A stretch of DNA of 64,000 nucleotides, from positions 119,971 to 183,970 of the forward strand of contig CAVSQB010000022.1 of the NCBI GenBank assembly GCA_963729895.1. The letters run 5' to 3'. Each line of letters starts with the position of its first letter. Position 1 is the stretch's first letter. Under the pieces are notes generated by a model. It saw nothing but the letters and a program-made list of their open reading frames with translations. It was not told the DNA's origin and searched no databases. Of this stretch, positions 47,354-56,251 are shown one piece after another. This stretch comes from an uncultured Fibrobacterota bacterium. GTDB taxonomy: Bacteria; Fibrobacterota; Chitinivibrionia; Chitinivibrionales; FEN-1185. Made by a program: the position numbers and the translations under genes.

Positions 47354-47590
47354 GACAGTATCCTTTCCCGATCTTTTCCACTGTCCTGTTTGAGGTTTCC
47401 AAAGCCTGCCACCGTATGTCTACATTATCCGGTGCGTGTGCAGTGAATGCCAGCAGAAGCTGCATTGCCGTGCTTCGATGGCGGGCCGGCCCGCCGGCGC
47501 GTGTTCCGGTATGCTCGAAGCCGGAAATCAATTATCTTAGTACCAAAGTCCACGCTGATTCCGTCTCTCCTCGAAAAGAAAGAAGATGCA

Positions 47591-48565
47591 ATGGCAGAGG
47601 TAACCATCAACGTTATTCCGTACACTCCGGACCGCAGAGACGCCTGGAACGCATTTGTAAGGGCTTCCAATAACGGGACCGTGTTTCACACGCAGGACTT
47701 TCTGGACTACCACCCGGAAGGAAGATTCACCTTCCTCCACCTGATGTTTTACAAAGGCGACGAGCTCGTTGCCGTGCTGCCGGGCGGGCTCTCGGGCGAC
47801 ATGTTCAAGAGCCCCCTGGGGGCGAGCTTCGGCGGGTTTGTGGCGAATGCGCGTCTCGGTTTGCAGGATGCCGACGCAATTGTAAAGGCGTTCATCCGCT
47901 TCTGCGCCTCCAGGCTCATCAAGGAAGTGTACCTTACACCGCCCATGCAAATCTACAACGCCACATTCAACGAGTCCATCGAATACGCCATGCACTACAA
48001 CCACTACATCGTTCTGTCGAGCCTGTTTTCCTCGGTCATCGATTTTTCGGTGATTCACGGAAAAGACGACCTCTCGCGCAACACGCGGCACAAAATCAAC
48101 AAGGCCGTCAACAAGGGCGTGCGGATCGAGGAAAACAGGGACTTCGACGCGTTCTACCCGATTCTCCTCAAGAACAAGGAGAAATTCAGCGTGACGCCCA
48201 CGCACACGCTTGACGAACTCAAAAAGATCGAATCGCTTCTCCCGGGCATGATGACGCTGTTTTTGGCCTACTTCGAAAACCGGCCCATCGCCGGGGAATT
48301 GCTCTTTACCTGCAACAAGCAGTGCGTTCTCAACTTCTACACCATGCACCTGTACGATTTTCACAACCTGTTCGCAGTCAATTACCTCATCGAGCATTCC
48401 ATCCGCTGGTGCAACCAGAAAGGCTTCCGCTATTTCGACTACGGAGTGTCCGCGGACACCTTCAGTATCGATCCCATGGAACCTTCGTGGACGCTCATCG
48501 AGTTCAAGGAGTCGATGGGCGCAAACGGGTGCCAGCGGAAGACGTACTACCGGAGAATTTTCTGA
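47591..48565 (+). CDS. FemAB/BioF2-like acetyltransferase-fold protein (Acetyltransf_6-type GNAT)
   Basis: The track ORF starts at 47447; ATG 47591 gives MAEVTINVIPYTPDRRDAWNAFV..GTVFHTQDFLDYH.. . The length (324 aa) and two-lobed GNAT-like pattern resemble FemAB-family or EPS-associated acyltransferases. Confidence 0.6.
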   Translation: MAEVTINVIPYTPDRRDAWNAFVRASNNGTVFHTQDFLDYHPEGRFTFLHLMFYKGDELVAVLPGGLSGDMFKSPLGASFGGFVANARLGLQDADAIVKAFIRFCASRLIKEVYLTPPMQIYNATFNESIEYAMHYNHYIVLSSLFSSVIDFSVIHGKDDLSRNTRHKINKAVNKGVRIEENRDFDAFYPILLKNKEKFSVTPTHTLDELKKIESLLPGMMTLFLAYFENRPIAGELLFTCNKQCVLNFYTMHLYDFHNLFAVNYLIEHSIRWCNQKGFRYFDYGVSADTFSIDPMEPSWTLIEFKESMGANGCQRKTYYRRIF

Positions 48566-48601
48566 GGCGGGCCGTGCCTGCAGCGGAATTCGTTCAAAGT
48601 T

Positions 48602-48766
48602 TTACCGCAGAGGCGCAAAGGACGCAAAGGAACCGGAGCTGGATTGAGTACCGTAAACTGATGAAGAGCTAACGAGCAATTATAGGGGTCATTGCGAGCG
48701 CAGCGAAGCAATCTCATTCACCTTCACAGAGTGTTAAACTTTGCGCTCTTTGCGTCTTTGCGGTAA
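48602..48766. repeat. paired inverted 28-nt arm element, copy A
   Basis: The left arm is TTACCGCAGAGGCGCAAAGGACGCAAAG (48602-48629). The right arm is CTTTGCGCTCTTTGCGTCTTTGCGGTAA (48739-48766). The spacer is 109 nt and lies between convergent genes. Confidence 0.85.
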
Positions 48767-48772
48767 GTCTTC

Positions 48773-49303
48773 TTACTCCTGCAGCCACGTCTTCCAGATT
48801 CCCGGGGAAGATTCCGGAATGTCAGTCGCGCCCACGGTTTTCCTGTAATAGTCCGCAGGCCCCACGCCGCCCACGATGGCATACCCGTACCCTTTGAGTT
48901 TCATGTCCTGCAGGGCGGCATACAGTAACGCAGTGCCGATCCCCTTGTTGCGGAACCCGTTATCCACGCCGGTGGGACCGAAATAGCCCAGGGCAGTGGC
49001 ATCGTAACACGCGAAACCGACGATCTTTTGCCCCTTAAAAAGGGCAATGAAGCAGGAGACAGGCCTGTTGCAGAGCGCCATGTCCGTTTCGCTCGACCAT
49101 GCCTTGTTGAATTTGGTTTTTACCCACTCAACAACAAGGTGCTTTTCCGGACCGATGGGTTTGCGGATCGTAACATCCTGGTCCCTTGCCTTTTCGATGA
49201 CCGGACAGTCGCCGGGAAGATTGTAGAGCTTGACGAGCATGTCGTGCATGCGGGGCAATCCTTTGTGATGGTACGGGTTTGTGGAATGAAAAGAAAAATA
49301 CAT
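48773..49303 (-). CDS. GNAT-family N-acetyltransferase
   Basis: 176 aa. ..IVGFACYD..GYFGPTGVDNGFRNKGIGTALLYAAL.. is the GNAT motif A (acetyl-CoA binding). The true start may be an internal Met (MHDMLVKLYNL..). Confidence 0.8.
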   Translation of the reverse strand: MYFSFHSTNPYHHKGLPRMHDMLVKLYNLPGDCPVIEKARDQDVTIRKPIGPEKHLVVEWVKTKFNKAWSSETDMALCNRPVSCFIALFKGQKIVGFACYDATALGYFGPTGVDNGFRNKGIGTALLYAALQDMKLKGYGYAIVGGVGPADYYRKTVGATDIPESSPGIWKTWLQE

Positions 49304-49408
49304 GAATCCTCTAGCGAGCGCATTGTCACTTCGTTCCCTAAGGTATGGTAGTTGCGCTTCGCGCTTTGTATCATGTCGTTTGCCTTTTCCCCGAAGGTTC
49401 GCTTGCGC

Positions 49409-49439
49409 ATGACCATTTTTCGGACTATATTATGGTCAT
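49409..49439. promoter_or_regulatory. palindromic operator candidate upstream of the TA operon
   Basis: ATGACCAT (49409-49416) and ATGGTCAT (49432-49439) are a perfect 8-bp inverted repeat. They flank TATATT, 12 nt upstream of the antitoxin ATG (RBS GGAGGG). Confidence 0.5.
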
Positions 49440-49450
49440 ATGGAGGGACC

Positions 49451-49729
49451 ATGAAACTCAGCGAAACGGTCAAACCGATAAGTTATCTCAAAGCCCACGC
49501 ATCTGAAATTGTCAACAGCATTACGGATTCTCATCAAACATTTGTCATCACCAGGCGGGGTGAGGCCAAAGCGGTCGTGCAGGATATCTCAAGCTATGAG
49601 CAGACGCAGGAAAGCCTGGCGCTGTTGAAAATGGTGGCGATGAGCGCTGCCAGTCTCGAAAAGGGCCGTTTTAAGCCGATGAAGAAAGCGTTTTCCCACC
49701 TTGCTGAAAGAATACAAAAATCCGCATGA
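49451..49729 (+). CDS. Phd/YefM-family antitoxin
   Basis: 92 aa from ATG 49451: MKLSETVKPISYLKAHASEIVNSITDSHQTFVITRRGEAKAVVQDISSYEQ.. . It overlaps the toxin gene by 4 nt (ATGA). Confidence 0.85.
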   Translation: MKLSETVKPISYLKAHASEIVNSITDSHQTFVITRRGEAKAVVQDISSYEQTQESLALLKMVAMSAASLEKGRFKPMKKAFSHLAERIQKSA

Positions 49730-50049
49730 AGTATCAGGTTTTTCTGATTTCGGACGCCGAGGAAGACATCTTCGAAATATTTTACTACATTGCCTCAAAC
49801 GATTCCGTAGAACGCGCCGATTATGTATACGGCAAGCTCAGGGAGACATGTTCAACCCTGGAATTCTCCCCCCGCCGTGGTCATGTCCCTCCCGAATTGG
49901 ACAGAATCGGGGTTGACAATTTCCTCCAGATACATTTCAAACCTTACCGGATAATCTATTCTGTGTCCGGAAACAAGGTGTTCATACATTGTGTTCTTGA
50001 CGGCCGTCGAAATCTGCAGGATTTGCTCCATCATCGTTTGGTCCGATAG
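49726..50049 (+). CDS. RelE/ParE-family toxin
   Basis: 107 aa. ..AEEDIFEIFYYIA.. and ..YRIIYSVSGNKVFIHCVLDGRRNLQDLL.. are typical of ParE-like toxins. Confidence 0.85.
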   Translation: MKYQVFLISDAEEDIFEIFYYIASNDSVERADYVYGKLRETCSTLEFSPRRGHVPPELDRIGVDNFLQIHFKPYRIIYSVSGNKVFIHCVLDGRRNLQDLLHHRLVR

Positions 50050-50059
50050 ATGTCAAAAG

Positions 50060-50929
50060 TCAGAAAGTCCATTTCTTAATCCTTCTCCCGATCAAAGCCT
50101 CGACCCTTGAAGAATTCAGATGCACGTTCCCGATCCTCGGCGGTCCGTCCACATCGTCCTGCCGCGACCATTTCTTAAGCGCCTCATTCTTGTACCTTCC
50201 CTTTTCAAGTATGCGCCTGCCTATTTCGTAGAGGCTTACCGGATGCGGGCCGCCAAGGTGGAACAACCCTTGTGTTTCCTTGAGAAGCAGCTCAGCAACG
50301 ATACCGGCAAGTTCGCAGCAATCAATGCAGCTTCGGTATTCGTCGTGAAACAGCGACATGGGAAGGCCGCGTTTGAGCCTGCCTTCGATGAAATCCACGG
50401 CGCCCTTTTCGCCCTGTATCGAGCCGCCCATAGGCAGGCCCAGACGCACGATGCCACAGCGGGGTGCGCGCTTGATCTCCTTTTCCGCCAGCGCATAGGT
50501 CTGGCCCACAACACTCACGGGGTCGGGATCGTCCTGTTCGGAGTACCCGCCGGGAGGAGGGTTATGGCCGGAAAACACAAGGTCGGCGCTCAGGTACATC
50601 ACATAACAGGCGGGAGAAAAGACATCGACGATGTTCTTTGCACCGCCCACGTTGATGTCCTGGGCGTACTTCGGCCGCTCCTCGCAGATATCAAGATCGC
50701 ATACGCCGGCAGCGTGCAGCACGTGCGTGGGCCGGAACGCCGCATTGATCTGTGCGAGCGTGTCCCCATCGGTCATGCACACCGAGGCGACGTTGGCGTC
50801 CTTGGGGACCACCGTCTGCGGCGGCCGGATGCCGAACAGGCGGTCGGCGGGGAGAATTGTTTTGAGCTTTTTGAAAATGGGCCAGCCGTGGATGGACGTG
50901 ACGCCCGTGATGAGGATGCGGCAGGACAT
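50060..50929 (-). CDS. NAD(P)-dependent reductase/epimerase, RmlD substrate-binding-domain-like
   Basis: The track ORF extends to 51508, but its first ~190 codons are Arg/Ser/Pro-rich and overlap speE. ATG 50929 gives MSCRILITGVTSIHGWPIF.. (a Rossmann GxxGxxG-like motif), then ..YLSADLVFSG..Y..AE.. . Confidence 0.7.
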   Translation of the reverse strand: MSCRILITGVTSIHGWPIFKKLKTILPADRLFGIRPPQTVVPKDANVASVCMTDGDTLAQINAAFRPTHVLHAAGVCDLDICEERPKYAQDINVGGAKNIVDVFSPACYVMYLSADLVFSGHNPPPGGYSEQDDPDPVSVVGQTYALAEKEIKRAPRCGIVRLGLPMGGSIQGEKGAVDFIEGRLKRGLPMSLFHDEYRSCIDCCELAGIVAELLLKETQGLFHLGGPHPVSLYEIGRRILEKGRYKNEALKKWSRQDDVDGPPRIGNVHLNSSRVEALIGRRIKKWTF

Positions 50930-51035
50930 TGGGGCCACTGTCGGCATGTTACTCCGGCGGAACGACGCAGCATGCATACAACCCTCAGGAGCAGTCGCAA
51001 CAGCGAACCTCCGAGGAACGCACCCGCGCAGGGAT

Positions 51036-51908
51036 TCAGGCAATGATCTTCCGGATGTATTCCGGCAGCAGAAACGCCCCGCGGTGGATGTCCGGGTTGT
51101 AGTAGGTGCAGCGCTTGGCCACCGACGAATACCGCTTGTCATTGAATTTGTCGATATCGGCGCCATCCTTGGCGCACAGCACGAAGCTGCAGATGGCCTC
51201 GGGAAACGACGGCATGGTGCATGTGTAAAGCTTATACGCCGCAAACAGCGTCGAAATCGCCGCCACGGTGGAGCGCAGGTATTCCGCCCTGATGGTGGGC
51301 GAATCGGTCTGGAACACCGCGATGCCGCCTTTGTCGAGCCGGTCGAATACGAGTTTGTAGAAGCCCGTGGTTTCGAGTGACTGCACCGGCCCGCCCGGAT
51401 CGTACGAATCGACAAGGATGACGTCGAAGGTTTCTTTGCATTTGGTAAGATACGAGCATCCTTCGGCGAATTCGACGCGGCTTCGCTTGTCCGAAAATGA
51501 TTTGGCAAGCGACGGAAAATGCACCGTGACCGCCTCCTTCACCATCTTGTCGATTTCCACGACAAGGGCGGTTTCAACGTCCTTGTACTTGAGCACTTCC
51601 CGGAGGCACCCGCCGTCTCCCCCGCCGATAATGCACACGCGGCGAGGGTCCGCGTGCATATTCATCGCCGGGTGGGCGATCGATTCGTGGTAGATATGCT
51701 CGTCGCGCTCGGTAAGAACGATGTTGTCCGCGAGTACCAGCACCTTGCCGAACGCATAGGTGTGGAACACCTCGATCTTCTGGAACGGGCTGGCCCCGTA
51801 ATGAAGCGCGTGTTTGGCGCGGAGGGTGATGCCCGCGAGCCCGTTCACCAGGTTTTCCAGCCAGAGCGACGAGTTGCTTCCTGTTTCGTACCGGGGAGAT
51901 GTTTCCAT
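51036..51908 (-). CDS. speE: spermidine synthase (polyamine aminopropyltransferase)
   Basis: An AAGGAAG RBS precedes ATG 51908 (METSPRYETG..). ..SPFQKIEVF..GKVLVLADNIVLTERDEHIYHE.., ..VCIIGGGDGGCLREVLKY.. and ..FDVILVDSYDPGGP.. are canonical SpeE motifs. Confidence 0.85.
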   Translation of the reverse strand: METSPRYETGSNSSLWLENLVNGLAGITLRAKHALHYGASPFQKIEVFHTYAFGKVLVLADNIVLTERDEHIYHESIAHPAMNMHADPRRVCIIGGGDGGCLREVLKYKDVETALVVEIDKMVKEAVTVHFPSLAKSFSDKRSRVEFAEGCSYLTKCKETFDVILVDSYDPGGPVQSLETTGFYKLVFDRLDKGGIAVFQTDSPTIRAEYLRSTVAAISTLFAAYKLYTCTMPSFPEAICSFVLCAKDGADIDKFNDKRYSSVAKRCTYYNPDIHRGAFLLPEYIRKIIA

Positions 51909-51936
51909 TGTGGCTTCCTTTAGTTCGAATATGAAG

Positions 51937-52029
51937 TTCACCGCAAAGGCGCAAAGGACACAAAGAAGGCAGGAGTATTATTTATGACAAACTCATTTTT
52001 TCTTTGCGCTCTTTGCGTCTTTGCGGTGA
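51937..52029. repeat. paired inverted 28-nt arm element, copy B
   Basis: The left arm is TTCACCGCAAAGGCGCAAAGGACACAAAG (51937-51965). The right arm is CTTTGCGCTCTTTGCGTCTTTGCGGTGA (52002-52029). The spacer is 36 nt, and the element ends 28 nt upstream of the speE ATG. Confidence 0.85.
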
Positions 52030-52047
52030 GTCATGATCTTTCTTCCG

Positions 52048-53148
52048 TCAGTCAATAACAACAATTTTCGCTTTTGGAAACCCGTTGAACGTGGTGGCGC
52101 TTGCCGTCGTGTAGGCGCCCATGGAATCGAACAGCAGCACGTCGCCGATCTCAAGCAGGGGCAGCGCGATGTTCTCGTACAGGACGTCGAACGAATCACA
52201 GGTGGGGCCCGAAAGCACCGAGTTGAACGTTTCGCCCGACCGGGGTACAAGCAGGGGATAGTCGGCATGATCGAAAACCTTGCCCGAAAACGAACCGTAC
52301 AGCCCTTCGTCAAGATAATACCACCACACGCCGCTGCGCAAGGATTTGCCCATCACACGCGTCGCAAGCACCATGCACGGCCCGGAGAGCACCCTTCCGG
52401 GCTCCGCGATAATCCGGTAGTTGGTAAAATAGCGTTCGAGATATTCGTTGATCGGCTGGCAGAAGCGCTGAATGGGAAGCACCGGGTTCAAGTAGTTGAT
52501 GGGAAACCCGCCGCCGATGTCGATGATGCTGAGAGAAATGCCGGAGAGCGCCGCCTTCCTGCAGATGTCGCGGCAGAAATCGAGCGCCTCGATATATTTG
52601 AGCGGATTCTCGTTTTGTGAACCGGCATGAAAGCTGATGCCCGCTACGGAAAGACCCATGGCATGCGCCTTTGCAATAAGGGAAAACGTCTGCGTTGGCG
52701 CGCACCCGAATTTATGCGAAAGGTTCACCATGCACGCAGGGTTCTGTACGCTCATGCGCACGAGGAGGTGCGCCCGGTCTTTGTACGGAAGGAACTTGTC
52801 GAGCTCGAATTCGTTGTCCACCACAAAAAGGGTGACGCCGAAATCGAGGGCATAGCGGATGTCCGCGTCGCGCTTGATCGGGTGGGTGTGCATGCACTTG
52901 CCGGCCGTGACGCCGCACTGCCGCACGATGTCGATCTCGCCGTTGGTGCAGATATCGAATGAGCCGCCCTCCTGCTGCAGGATGTCGATGATCTCCGGCT
53001 GGGCATTCGATTTGACTGCGTAAAAGAGCTCGACGCCCGGCAGGGCGTACGCAAGGGCGCGAAAGCTCTCGCGCAGCCTGCTTTGGGAAAGGAACAGCGA
53101 CGGCGTACCGTGAACCGAAACGAGCTGGTTCAGTTTTCCAAAATCCAT
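52048..53148 (-). CDS. type III PLP-dependent decarboxylase, ornithine (or lysine/ornithine) decarboxylase-like
   Basis: 366 aa. ..LFYAVKSNAQPEIIDIL..GGSFDICTNGEIDIV.., ..SFHAGSQ.., ..IIDIGGGFP.., ..LSGPTCDSFDVL.. and ..FDSMGAYT.. closely follow the eukaryotic-type ODC/DapDC family signature. Confidence 0.8.
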   Translation of the reverse strand: MDFGKLNQLVSVHGTPSLFLSQSRLRESFRALAYALPGVELFYAVKSNAQPEIIDILQQEGGSFDICTNGEIDIVRQCGVTAGKCMHTHPIKRDADIRYALDFGVTLFVVDNEFELDKFLPYKDRAHLLVRMSVQNPACMVNLSHKFGCAPTQTFSLIAKAHAMGLSVAGISFHAGSQNENPLKYIEALDFCRDICRKAALSGISLSIIDIGGGFPINYLNPVLPIQRFCQPINEYLERYFTNYRIIAEPGRVLSGPCMVLATRVMGKSLRSGVWWYYLDEGLYGSFSGKVFDHADYPLLVPRSGETFNSVLSGPTCDSFDVLYENIALPLLEIGDVLLFDSMGAYTTASATTFNGFPKAKIVVID

Positions 53149-53234
53149 AAGGGAGTACCGCTTGTGTGCACCTTTCTGAAAAGGGAACGCAAAAAAGATT
53201 TTAAATATACGTTAGGAGGGACAAAGTACGCGAT

Positions 53235-54176
53235 TTATTCATGCGCTATTTCGTCGGGAATGTCCGGGTGCCGGTCGGTGAGAATACGGGCGCGTTTGTT
53301 AAGCACACCATCGAGGAGCGGCCACGAGACCTGGGCCGCTTCATGGATCCTGCCCGTATAGTACTGCAGATCCTTTATGCCGTACGTTGAAAGCTTTTTG
53401 TCAACGGCGGCGCGTCCGACGGACGCCATGTCCGACGCGTCCGACGAAACGGTCACCGACCACAGGGTGGCATACATGTGGATATACGCGTACAGCGGCC
53501 GCACGTGGCGGAACACCGAACGCAGGGTGCACTGGATGCTTGCGAACGTACGCGGACGGGCCACGGGCGATTCGGTATGCATCACGAACACGCCGCGGGA
53601 ATCCACGAACGACCGCTTCACAGAACGGAAGAAGTCCCTGGTATACAGGAATTTCGCCGGGCCGAACGGATCGGTCATATCCATAATCACGATGTCGAAT
53701 GTCGCCGGGTTCCTTTCGACGAATTTGCGTCCGTCCGTGATGTGAATGCTCACGCGCGGATCGTCGAAAGCGCCCCGGTTGAGCGAGGGCAGATACTTCC
53801 GGGAAAACGCGATCACGCCTTCGTCGAGCTCGGCGAGGTCCACCGATTGCACGCACGGGTATTTGAGCACTTCCCGGATGATGCCGCCATCGCCTGCGCC
53901 GATCACCAGCACGCGCCGGGGGCGCGGGTGCGTGCACAGGGCGGGGTGCACCATGGGCTCGTGATAGTAGCATTCGCCTCGTTCTGCGGCCTGGGTAATG
54001 CCGTCGAGGATCAGGACCCGGCCGTATTCGTTTGTGTCAACAAGTTCGAGGGTCTGGTACTTGGTGGCGCCGAACTGCAGGCGGCGCTTGATGGTGTAGA
54101 AAAAGCCGGCGTCGCTGTTGAGCCATTCGGCGTGTTGCGTTGAATGCCGGGAACGGCGCAGGCCGAGGGATTTCAT
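53235..54176 (-). CDS. speE: second spermidine-synthase-family aminopropyltransferase
   Basis: 313 aa. ..YQTLELVDTNEYGRVLILDGITQAAERGECYYHE.., ..VLVIGAGDGGIIREVLKY.. and ..FDIVIMDMTDPFGP.. . It is clearly paralogous to, but diverged from, 51036..51908. Confidence 0.8.
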   Translation of the reverse strand: MKSLGLRRSRHSTQHAEWLNSDAGFFYTIKRRLQFGATKYQTLELVDTNEYGRVLILDGITQAAERGECYYHEPMVHPALCTHPRPRRVLVIGAGDGGIIREVLKYPCVQSVDLAELDEGVIAFSRKYLPSLNRGAFDDPRVSIHITDGRKFVERNPATFDIVIMDMTDPFGPAKFLYTRDFFRSVKRSFVDSRGVFVMHTESPVARPRTFASIQCTLRSVFRHVRPLYAYIHMYATLWSVTVSSDASDMASVGRAAVDKKLSTYGIKDLQYYTGRIHEAAQVSWPLLDGVLNKRARILTDRHPDIPDEIAHE

Positions 54177-54197
54177 GATAAATTCCTTAGAAAATTC

Positions 54198-54354
54198 TCA
54201 CCGCAGAGACGCAAAGGGCGCAAAGAAATAGCCATAGATAGTTTTTTGTCCTGCTGATTCATCGCCGGGAAAACGCGGAACAGCTTTGTTCTTGTTCCGT
54301 ATTTGTTTGACTCCCACTCTATTTACCTTTGCGTACTTTGCGCCTTTACGGTGA
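54198..54354. repeat. paired inverted 28-nt arm element, copy C
   Basis: The left arm is TCACCGCAGAGACGCAAAGGGCGCAAAG (54198-54225). The right arm is CCTTTGCGTACTTTGCGCCTTTACGGTGA (54326-54354). The spacer is 100 nt, and the element starts 21 nt upstream of the 54176 ATG. Confidence 0.85.
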
Positions 54355-54376
54355 ACTGCATTATTGAGGTCTCAAG

Positions 54377-55159
54377 TTACAGGTCGTACGAGTAAATGTT
54401 TTTGCACTGAAAAATCTCAAGCATCTCCTTGCGCAGGAGGCTCGATATCTTTGACCGCGCGGAGGGCGTGAGCGATTGGCTTTCGGACCCGAACAGGTAC
54501 TTTTCGAGTTCGAACTTGCGCTGCATCATCTTGGTATGAAAGATGTTGTCCGACACGATATTGATGTCGTAGGCGGTGTAGATGTCGAGAATCTCGTCGG
54601 AGATGTAGTCTTGTATCGACGTGATGTCGTGGTCGAGGTAAATTTTGCGGCCGTGCACGTCACGGGTAAAGCCCCGCACCTTGTAGTCCATCAGCACGAT
54701 GTCCGAATCGAAGTTGTCGATGAGGAAATCCAGGGCGCGCAGCGGCGATATCGTGCCGCAGGTGGTGACGTCGATGTCGACCCGAAACGTGCTCATGCCG
54801 GTTACGGGGTTGGTTTCCGGGTAGGTGTGCGCGGAGATATGGCTTTTGTCAAGATGGGCAAGGGTCTCCTGCGGCACCGATTGGTGCCCCTCGTTGATGA
54901 GCACGGTCACCGATGCGCCGCGGGGCTCATAGTCCTGGCTCGACATGTTGATGATGTTCGCTTCGATGATCCTGGTGACTTCTTCAAGGATGCTTCGGAT
55001 CTTCTTGGAGTTGTACACCTCGTCGATGTAATCGAGGTAGTCGGTCTGGGAGGCCTTCGACCGGGCATAGCAGATATCGTAGATGTTGAAACTGAGCGAC
55101 TTGGTGAGACTGTTGAAGCCCTGCAGCTTGATCTTTCTGCCGCGGCACCGGTTTATCAT
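54377..55159 (-). CDS. speD: S-adenosylmethionine decarboxylase proenzyme (E. coli SpeD type)
   Basis: ..KLQGFNSLTKSLSFNIYDICYA.., ..SQDYEPRGASVTVLI.. and ..LAHLDKSHISAHTYPE.. parallel E. coli SpeD ([22 protein letters not shown] / VAHLDKSHICVHTYPE), including the self-processing Ser region. Confidence 0.9.
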   Translation of the reverse strand: MINRCRGRKIKLQGFNSLTKSLSFNIYDICYARSKASQTDYLDYIDEVYNSKKIRSILEEVTRIIEANIINMSSQDYEPRGASVTVLINEGHQSVPQETLAHLDKSHISAHTYPETNPVTGMSTFRVDIDVTTCGTISPLRALDFLIDNFDSDIVLMDYKVRGFTRDVHGRKIYLDHDITSIQDYISDEILDIYTAYDINIVSDNIFHTKMMQRKFELEKYLFGSESQSLTPSARSKISSLLRKEMLEIFQCKNIYSYDL

Positions 55160-55187
55160 TGAGTCAACCCCCTTGGGAAATTAAGTT

Positions 55188-55346
55188 TCACCGCAAAGGC
55201 GCAAAGAGCCCAAAGAAAAGGCCGCAAAAGAATTATTGAGATTAAGAAAATCAGCTTGTGAATTATATCGAAAACCACGGTTCTCTTTAACCATCTAATT
55301 GTATTCTCTCCAGCTTTCCTTCGCGTCCTTTGCGCCTTTGCGGTGA
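55188..55346. repeat. paired inverted 28-nt arm element, copy D
   Basis: The left arm is TCACCGCAAAGGCGCAAAGAGCCCAAAG (55188-55215). The right arm is CCTTCGCGTCCTTTGCGCCTTTGCGGTGA (55318-55346). The spacer is 102 nt. The element starts 28 nt upstream of the speD ATG and ends 8 nt after the response-regulator stop. Confidence 0.85.
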
Positions 55347-55354
55347 ATCTTCCT

Positions 55355-56251
55355 TTACAATTCGTTGATGTAGAGCGGCTTGTACCCCCGGTACTTGGGG
55401 GAAAAATAATTGATGAGTATGACCTCGGTCTTTTTTTTCGGGGCGATGTTCACGATCATCCTGTCGGAAAACAGCCTGCTCATGTGCAGGCCCCTGCCGG
55501 AGTCGTCGAGTACGCCTTCGCCCAGCATCTGGCGTTCGATCTTGTAGAGCACTGTGCCTTTTGTCAATCGACCTATGTTGTCCGTGACCGAAACGCCGTA
55601 TTTTTCCGCGTCGTACCCGCAGTCGAGGTGTACGAATTCGGCGGGAGCAAGGGTGACATCGGAGAATTCCTCGTATTTCGCGGTACCGTCGGGAAAGGAG
55701 GGCGCGTGGTACACCGCATTGGTGATGATCTCGTCCAGAATAAGCCGCATGTCGCCGGCAACGCCGAGCTTCTCCGTGAGCAGGGCCACCGCCGCCTCCC
55801 GTATGCCGTTTGCCTCGCGGGAGGAACGGACCTCAAAGGTTCCCAGGCGGGTAAACTGCGGCAGCATGTAGCGGGACAGGCCGAAGATGTCGCCGGTGAG
55901 CAGGCCGTCGATGAGCGAGCCGAGCTCGGTGAAGTTGAACGGCGACGTTTTGGGAATGATGTTCGAGACCCCGCTGGTGCGGGCAAGGCGGACATAGTCG
56001 TCCACGTTGTAGGCGGTAATCAGTACGGTGCGCGTGGCCGGATACAACCTCTTGATTTCAGCGAGAAGCTCGGGCCCCTTCATGCCCGGCATGTTGATGT
56101 CCGATATCGCCATGTCGAACGGTCGTTCTTTGCACAGCGCGAGCGCAGCCTCGGCGTGCTCGGCCGTCACCGCCTCGTAGGTTCCCTCGAGATAATCCAG
56201 CAGCATGGTACGGATCGACACTTCGTCGTCGACGATAAGGATGCGGTACAT
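55355..56251 (-). CDS. response regulator: REC domain fused to a GHKL (RsbW/SpoIIAB-like) ATPase-type domain
   Basis: The REC domain reads MYRILIVDDEVSIR..PFDMAISDINMPGMKG..VLITAY. The C-terminal half has ..LILDEIITNAVYHAP.. (N-box-like), ..VSVTDNIGRL.. and ..DDSGRGLHMSRLF.. (G-box-like). Confidence 0.75.
   Translation of the reverse strand: MYRILIVDDEVSIRTMLLDYLEGTYEAVTAEHAEAALALCKERPFDMAISDINMPGMKGPELLAEIKRLYPATRTVLITAYNVDDYVRLARTSGVSNIIPKTSPFNFTELGSLIDGLLTGDIFGLSRYMLPQFTRLGTFEVRSSREANGIREAAVALLTEKLGVAGDMRLILDEIITNAVYHAPSFPDGTAKYEEFSDVTLAPAEFVHLDCGYDAEKYGVSVTDNIGRLTKGTVLYKIERQMLGEGVLDDSGRGLHMSRLFSDRMIVNIAPKKKTEVILINYFSPKYRGYKPLYINEL

Follow-up and report, generated by a model that had tools for sequence, protein, structure and literature searches.

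Background

Among the closest described systems to the elements considered here are the intervening sequences of 23S rRNA genes. That of Coxiella burnetii has a 28-bp terminal stem, in which a purine-rich AGAAGA is followed by three tandem heptamers GACAGAT, and carries an open reading frame (ORF) for the four-helix-bundle protein S23p (PMC4990558); it has been described as a selfish element that is excised by RNase III (PMC4990558). Four loci of comparable build, A to D, are found around a set of polyamine genes in a 64,000-nucleotide stretch of DNA (the window) from an uncultured Fibrobacterota bacterium (assembly GCA_963729895.1, here genome G000, 4.41 Mb in 41 contigs; positions 119,971 to 183,970 of contig CAVSQB010000022.1, or C22:119971-183970). 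Each consists of two inverted 28-nt arms, made up of CGCAAAG heptamers, on either side of a spacer. We consider it fairly likely that these are gene-less members of a dispersed foldback family, selfish or near-neutral, which is related both to intervening sequences and to cassettes carrying a GxxExxY gene, and whose heptamers are probably recognized by the predicted nuclease that this gene encodes. Both of these links were overlooked in the original prediction, made from the letters of the window.

As in the intervening sequences of Coxiella, Leptospira and Salmonella, a stem of about 28 bp is formed here from terminal inverted repeats with tandem heptamers, and a small cargo ORF is optional; the S23p family has heptamer-armed copies of its own in G000. 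The differences lie in the site (a helix of 23S rRNA there, between protein-coding genes here), in the multi-copy and mostly gene-less state of the present elements, and in the combination of cargo and heptamer, which is S23p with GACAGAT there and GxxExxY with CGCAAAG here. No 23S rRNA gene, as a possible host of an intervening sequence with the same arms, is assembled in the genome.

The unit of the REP (repetitive extragenic palindromic) sequences is a short imperfect palindrome with a conserved 5' tetranucleotide, and the associated protein is an HUH/Y1 transposase, the REP-associated tyrosine transposase (RAYT). REP/BIME (bacterial interspersed mosaic element) and REPIN-RAYT systems resemble the present family in that they are short, dispersed intergenic repeats, often in inverted hairpin-forming pairs past stop codons and inside operons, and REP/REPIN-RAYT sequences in that they are clustered and linked to a usually single-copy gene flanked by the repeats. 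They differ in that the arm here repeats three heptamers head to tail and contains no palindrome of its own, pairing occurring between arms only, and in that the associated protein has the PD-(D/E)XK rather than the HUH/Y1 fold. Palindromic miniature inverted-repeat transposable elements (MITEs), such as the Neisseria Correia/NEMIS, ERIC and RUP elements, have copies that are alike along their whole length and defined target duplications. They are like the present elements in size (80-170 bp), inverted ends, intergenic position and presence or absence between related genomes, and their co-transcribed, RNase III-sensitive stems may have a counterpart here; the elements described below differ in sharing arms only, without a consistent duplication. 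A final parallel is given by the Ssn nucleases and their NTS repeats, in which a small nuclease is framed by a dispersed repeat, cuts that repeat and modulates natural transformation (PMC11893778). There, too, the repeat that frames the nuclease gene is found at many places beside other genes, with the differences that the fold is GIY-YIG rather than PD-(D/E)XK, that the repeat is another one, and that the nuclease activity of the GxxExxY protein is a predicted one.

Arms and loci of the window

The original prediction had described four loci in which a left arm is matched by its reverse complement on the right. Reading of the stretch 48400-55600 and a search with the consensus TCACCGCAAAGGCGCAAAGGACGCAAAG bore out all four, with the start of locus B moved from 51937 to 51938 and the spacers of A, B, C and D now measured at 109, 36, 101 and 103 nt (G+C 28-47%, against 55% for the genome). 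Seven arms have at most 3 mismatches to the 28-nt consensus and the eighth has 4; all lie in loci A-D, and the number expected by chance is 0. On both sides of all four loci the arm reads TCAC followed by CGCAAAG-G-CGCAAAG-NN-CGCAAAG, with unit starts 8 and 9 nt apart; the three tandem units, their spacing and the identity of the right arms of A and B over 26 nt had all been correctly noted. The consensus search found no further copy in the 64-kb window outside these loci, and the occurrence of all four within 6.7 kb amounts to non-random clustering under a uniform model (P ~2e-4).

Element A (48602..48766, no strand being assigned to this or the other elements; arms 48602-48629 and 48739-48766) fills the gap between two convergent acetyltransferase genes, as predicted, both confirmed as GNAT genes by Pfam. 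It starts 36 nt past the stop codon of 47447-48565(+) and ends 6 nt ahead of that of 48773-49303(-). Nested in its spacer is a small, dispersed hairpin motif, CATTGCGAGCGCAGCGAAGCAATC (48690..48713, plus strand), of which the genome has 15 copies at no more than 3 mismatches.

The other three elements lie in a minus-strand gene set identified by Pfam as a response regulator, an S-adenosylmethionine decarboxylase (AdoMetDC), a second speE, an ornithine/diaminopimelate (Orn/DAP)-type decarboxylase and speE, and each is just upstream of a polyamine gene, as had been proposed; the distances to the start codons are corrected here. Element D (55188..55346; arms 55188-55215 and 55319-55346) is 8 nt from the stop codon of the response regulator and 28 nt from the ATG of the AdoMetDC gene speD (54377..55159, minus; PF02675, E 2e-15). 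Element C (54198..54354; arms 54198-54225 and 54327-54354) falls within 199 inserted nt (54177-54376) that separate the stop codon of speD from the start of the second speE paralogue, speE2 (53235..54176, minus; PF01564, E 1e-50), whose ATG is 21 nt from the arm. Element B (51938..52029; arms 51938-51965 and 52002-52029) lies 18 nt from the stop of the gene for a pyridoxal phosphate (PLP)-dependent decarboxylase of the Orn/DAP/Arg type (52048..53148, minus; PF02784, E 3e-49) and 29 nt from the ATG of the spermidine synthase gene speE (51036..51908, minus; PF01564, E 4e-48), a start codon that is conserved in relatives.

The family in the genome

The earlier statement that there were no copies elsewhere held for the window and not for the genome, where 38 arms were found at up to 5 mismatches, on 18 contigs. 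A profile search gave about 40 arms at E < 0.01, in about 25 loci; about 16 inverted pairs can be made out among them, their spacers ranging from 25 to 434 nt, and about 10 arms stand alone, while the looser pattern CRCRRAG raises the number of arms to 54. Each element end consists of three CRCARAG heptamers with AAGAT-TCAC in front. A second cluster, of five loci, is present on contig C9 (P ~1e-3).

Insertion into genes had been named as something that would speak against a special placement; all copies are intergenic, between protein-coding genes, and none interrupts a gene. The arm typically begins 3-22 nt past a stop codon (median ~9), which at two loci falls within the arm edge, and 19-42 nt (median ~24, typically 19-30) separate the end of the other arm from the start codon that follows, enough for a ribosome-binding site of the GGA(A) type. 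The spacing to start codons seen at the polyamine genes is therefore reproduced elsewhere and is a property of the family, not of those genes, to which the elements are shown not to be tied. What survives of the suggested likeness to REP/BIME or MITE sequences is that these are dispersed hairpin repeats with a strong preference for sites just upstream of ribosome-binding sites; in their strict sense neither class applies. Copies may persist only where they spare both the stop codon ahead of them and the ribosome-binding site after them, and this would give rise to the constant spacing of 20-30 nt.

The GxxExxY cassette

Between the two arms that stand 434 nt apart (the pair at C9:22657-23146) lies an ORF of 127 aa, which encodes a GxxExxY protein (TIGR04256, E 2e-46), of the PD-(D/E)XK nuclease fold; this gene (C9:22715-23065) is the only one of its kind in the genome. 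The same arms bracket the GxxExxY gene at the orthologous locus of the related genome G001, and in G003 the bracketing arms are made of CACAGAG units. In distant phyla, all seven of the GxxExxY genes found near an exact arm lie between arms (7/7). The full-length form of the family would be a small GxxExxY gene between the same arms.

The family to which the protein belongs (PDDEXK_3, PF13366) has its function given as 'Unknown' in a survey of PD-(D/E)XK proteins (PMC3424549). An AlphaFold model built from seven relatives (predicted local distance difference test score, pLDDT, 89.5) has its best matches in lambda exonuclease, LHK-Exo and the Cas4 protein SSO0001, and residues D68, E78 and K80 are invariant. 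A sequence search with the protein found no solved structure for GxxExxY, and in literature on GxxExxY, PF13366, TIGR04256 and the heptamer neither the repeat nor its link to the gene was found described.

Outside the window, G000 also has two genes for four-helix-bundle proteins (TIGR02436, '23S rRNA intervening sequence protein'), at C19:102921-103238 and C9:9982-10296. Both lie between inverted arrays in which the short tandem units are different ones, of the GTTGAAAAG and GCGTATAGGCGTGAA types, and would represent a sister design, with a four-helix-bundle gene between other heptamer arrays.

The exact arm pattern, TCACCGCAAAGRCGCAAAGNNCGCAAAG, is present in at least 120 stretches of a species-genome collection, from more than 10 phyla and one archaeon. 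Among the matches listed are Pseudomonadota, Chloroflexota, Acidobacteriota, Planctomycetota (anammox bacteria included), Nitrospinales, Desulfobacterales, Thermodesulfobacteriota, Latescibacterota, Bacteroidota and Fibrobacterota, along with a Roizmanbacteria genome and the archaeon Candidatus Methanoperedens. A remark in the original prediction, that CGCAAAG-type repeats turn up as spurious small ORFs (TAKAQR) in environmental genomes, fits this spread. Seven viral contigs also have the exact arm. Among the matches listed from both sources, 127 loci, an inverted partner lies within 1.5 kb at 75, and a GxxExxY gene, always between arms, at 7. One of the viral contigs, L173 (IMGVR_UViG_3300018080_000843), has four paired CGCAAAG elements of 92-94 nt each within 10 kb; scanning of viral contigs with the GxxExxY alignment gave one locus only.

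Compared with the six proteins with CGCAAAG arms from other phyla, the GxxExxY protein of G000 shows 61-68% identity to five and 46% to the sixth, from Chryseobacterium; its identity to the protein of G003, which is at the orthologous locus yet has CACAGAG arms, is 62%. Heptamers were assigned by eye at 30 GxxExxY loci, of which 9 came from pattern scans, 20 from genomes of Fibrobacterota and one from a viral contig, and the length of the protein's C-terminal tail was found to co-vary with heptamer position 2. In each of the 18 proteins with CGC-type units a conserved arginine is followed by 5 or more residues, usually as R-x-[VIA]-N, while in all 11 with CAC-type units 3-4 residues follow it. 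On the protein tree, like heptamer types group together (6 changes, vs a mean of 10 with shuffled labels), and on a tree made without the tail the well-supported independent contrasts are concordant in 3 of 3 cases, including CGCGAAA vs CACGAAA within one clade. This co-variation is suggestive of a relationship between tail and heptamer.

Orthologous sites and turnover

The polyamine operon is kept in five congeners, with nucleotide identities to G000 of 82-85% for G001, G003, G004 and G005; G001 and G004 are 95% identical to each other, and G002 and the same-family genome G007 served as outgroups. G004 has the whole operon twice (L013 and L014, on contigs C53 and C48, 97.8% identical), as a result either of duplication or of two strains in one bin, the contamination being given as 5%.

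Element C is not present in any of the five compared congeneric operons: in G001, G003, G004 (both copies) and G005 the site consists of the speD TGA, 1 nt and the ATG of speE2, and in the outgroups the interval is 14 nt (G002) or 2 nt (G007). Because the relatives have this stop-1 nt-ATG arrangement, the 199 nt of locus C are a derived insertion unique to G000. By this comparison element C was inserted into a predicted translationally coupled speD-speE2 junction, and its coupling would have been broken. The 21 nt from arm to ATG (GAATTTTCTAAGGAATTTATC) are likewise new, and include AAGGAA. The site of locus B is empty in G004 (11-nt spacer in both operon copies) and in G002, and filled in G001, G005 and G003, the last with CACAGAG arms and a 104-nt spacer; its flanks in G000, CTTCCTTTAG and CTTCCGTCAG, are a possible duplication of ~10 nt spanning the ribosome-binding site and stop codon.

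At locus D each of the five congeners has an element, and the site in G002 and G007 is empty. The arms are made of CACAGAG units in G001 and G004, and of CACAGAG/CGCGGAG units with a nested GTTGAAG palindrome in G005; one arm has been lost to another repeat in G003, and in G004 the arms have drifted as fast as the spacer. At the site of locus A, G005 has a CACAGAG-armed element, again with a nested GTTGAAG palindrome.

The flanks of 15 G001 elements were sought in G004, and 14 sites could be compared base by base. Six of the 14 are empty in G004: at one, TAG|ATG without any spacer stands against an insert of 178 nt in G001, and at another 18 nt against 131 nt. One further site is a degenerate remnant, and the rest hold other kinds of element, with CACRGAG arms, GTTGAAAG palindromes or TGTAGAT arrays (G000 itself holds 23 GTTGAAAG arrays). 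A single site was seen in three states: G001 has a CGCAAAG element without a gene there, G005 a GxxExxY cassette bounded by CACAGAG arms, and G004 a stretch of 18 nt. Since all six heptamers are replaced between genomes whose genes are 95% identical, point mutation is excluded and insertion, excision or conversion is required. G004 (94% completeness) is without a GxxExxY gene and has only 4 CGCAAAG arms; the numbers are 31 in G000, 47 in G001, 63 in G003, 40 in G005 and 0 in G002. In G004 one CGCAAAG element (L045, G004:C19:15480-16300) has an extra insert of ~170 nt in its loop, with a palindrome of its own (…TCGTCCTGAGCTTGTCGAAGGATGAGCG…), and element loops seem to serve as landing sites for other small repeats.

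These alignments show the elements to be gained, lost and replaced by other arm types, much faster than the flanking genes diverge, and show them to be insertions into very short stop/start junctions of operons.

Sequence and pairing of the arms

What the copies have in common is the arm and 5-10 nt outside it (consensus AAGAT|TCACC); spacers match neither one another nor the interior of the GxxExxY cassette, and so are neither leftovers of the GxxExxY gene nor duplicates of one another. Membership of a MITE family was rejected for the same elements, whole-length similarity and an origin by internal deletion both failing where only the arms and 5-10 nt are shared. Within the arm, the heptamers are near invariant, and linker positions 12, 20 and 21 vary.

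RNA stem-loops were one of the roles suggested in the original prediction, and whichever strand is read, a long hairpin is formed by every element (z -3 to -12), with -45 to -70 kcal/mol on the transcribed strand; a gene for RNase III is present in the genome. The strength of these hairpins speaks for the first alternative, namely that the elements are host-adaptive intercistronic stem-loops which, like REP/BIME sequences, set the stability or processing of the operon mRNA and so tune the ratios of the speD, speE and decarboxylase products. Their position, always after a stop codon and ahead of the ribosome-binding site that follows, often inside operons, is as this would have it, as are the four copies in one operon and the history of locus D, filled in all five congeners, where both arms have changed heptamer type together. 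Against it, compensatory changes between the arms of one element were looked for and none was found: there are 4.2 mismatches within elements vs 3.8 between them (permutation p 0.96), and linker positions mismatch freely. The locus D arms of G004 are no better kept than their spacer. Because arms resemble each other no more within an element than between elements, the heptamer sequence would be kept as for a protein-binding site and not for base pairing, and its conservation points to sequence recognition rather than selection on the stem. Locus C exists in G000 only and locus B is gone in G004, without visible decay of the operon in either case, and the same arm is present across phyla, in an archaeon and on viral contigs, and brackets a nuclease gene. 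We regard host-adaptive stem-loops as rather unlikely for these reasons.

Proposed mechanism and alternatives

The foldback family outlined at the start would work as follows. The heptamers would be the recognition sites of the cassette nuclease, which would in turn drive the spread or homogenization of the arms; the co-variation of tail and heptamer and the low number of arms in G004, the congener without the gene, are indirect hints of this. Once the operon is transcribed, the 28-bp stems would form and RNase III would cut them, as it does in 23S rRNA intervening sequences, and the polyamine mRNA would be split into per-gene pieces as a side effect; such cleavage is a reasonable expectation because the anatomy matches that of the Coxiella intervening sequence and RNase III is encoded.

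Several observations weigh against this explanation. Duplication of the target site is not consistent across the sites that could be resolved: ~10 nt is possible at locus B, and none is evident at locus C or at two G001 elements with resolved empty sites (L031 and L032). Because the spacers are unrelated, there is no trace of a recent burst of copy-and-paste or of descent through internal deletion, and the proposal as it stands gives no account of the unrelated spacers or of the new leaders at filled junctions. RNase III cleavage of the transcripts is proposed by analogy, and movement of the elements, like cutting or binding by the GxxExxY protein, is putative. The correlation of tail and heptamer falls short of significance because there are 3 contrasts only (sign test p 0.25). 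Finally, in G003 and G005, with 63 and 40 CGCAAAG arms, the only GxxExxY gene has CACAGAG arms, and because it is the sole one there, a strictly cognate nuclease must be missing or unassembled in these two genomes.

A wider version of the same proposal can be put forward tentatively, as a possibility to which we give distinctly less weight. In it, the gene-less copies, the GxxExxY and four-helix-bundle cassettes and the classical 23S intervening sequences would form one as yet undescribed superfamily of mobile DNA that targets stop/start junctions; the small PD-(D/E)XK protein would read the heptamers, its C-terminal tail specifying position 2 (Asn-bearing for CGC units, short for CAC units), and would drive arm insertion, replacement and cross-phylum spread.

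A second alternative is that these are MITEs of the usual kind, mobilized in trans by a classical transposase such as the six-copy IS200/IS605 Y1 enzyme, with GxxExxY as passenger cargo. Terminal inverted repeats, small size, presence or absence between species, the possible ~10-nt flanking duplication at locus B and the six identical Y1 transposase genes of the genome all agree with it. No Y1 gene adjoins CGCAAAG arms, however, and the ends of IS200/IS605 elements are not built as inverted arrays of heptamers; copies are alike in their arms and not in their interior, no consistent target duplication was found, and the GxxExxY gene lies between such arms wherever both were examined, with a tail that co-varies with the heptamer. 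This alternative appears improbable.

The last is that of paired operator arrays for a DNA-looping polyamine regulator, a role raised in the original prediction, or of bidirectional terminators. Three loci just upstream of polyamine starts, one between convergent genes, and heptamers that resemble iterated binding sites speak for it. It is already contradicted by the distribution: the same arms stand genome-wide beside unrelated genes, locus C occurs in no congener, B is gone in one, and the heptamers of D and A differ. The region also has no sigma-70-like promoter, no Rfam match (48000-56000, E up to 1) and no arm-closed hairpin that registers as a T-tailed terminator. We give this alternative very little credence. 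The lone terminator-like match inside an element is a small plus-strand hairpin in the locus C spacer, on the strand opposite to the operon.

Other features of the window and genome

A RAYT gene was looked for as a candidate partner of the repeat: of the eight PF01797 matches, two are fragments and six are full-length copies of an insertion sequence, and no arm lies near any of them. The six full-length Y1 transposase genes, of the IS200/IS605 type, lie at C5:146214, C5:430734, C15:79585, C31:83634, C40:38630 and C22:78-440 of G000, the last at the very start of the window's contig; their near-equal scores are those of an active-looking insertion sequence. In the window, a Phd/YefM antitoxin and ParE toxin pair is found at 49352-50049, between a GNAT gene and an RmlD-like gene, and the interval between the latter and speE (50973-51038), single-copy in G000, matches five loci of G004 at 81-89% identity.

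Significance

The elements in the window should not be annotated as polyamine regulators; they appear to be recent insertions. The family would tie together three subjects so far handled apart: a very common orphan nuclease family, GxxExxY/PF13366, the 'spurious ORF' repeats of environmental genomes, and the 23S intervening sequences, whose origin, to our knowledge, has stood without explanation since 1990. With a near-identical 28-nt arm across phyla, in an archaeon and in viruses, and with the correlation between tail and heptamer, the GxxExxY protein would gain a concrete DNA partner. If the nuclease is heptamer-specific, it may also become a tool, as the Ssn enzymes did.

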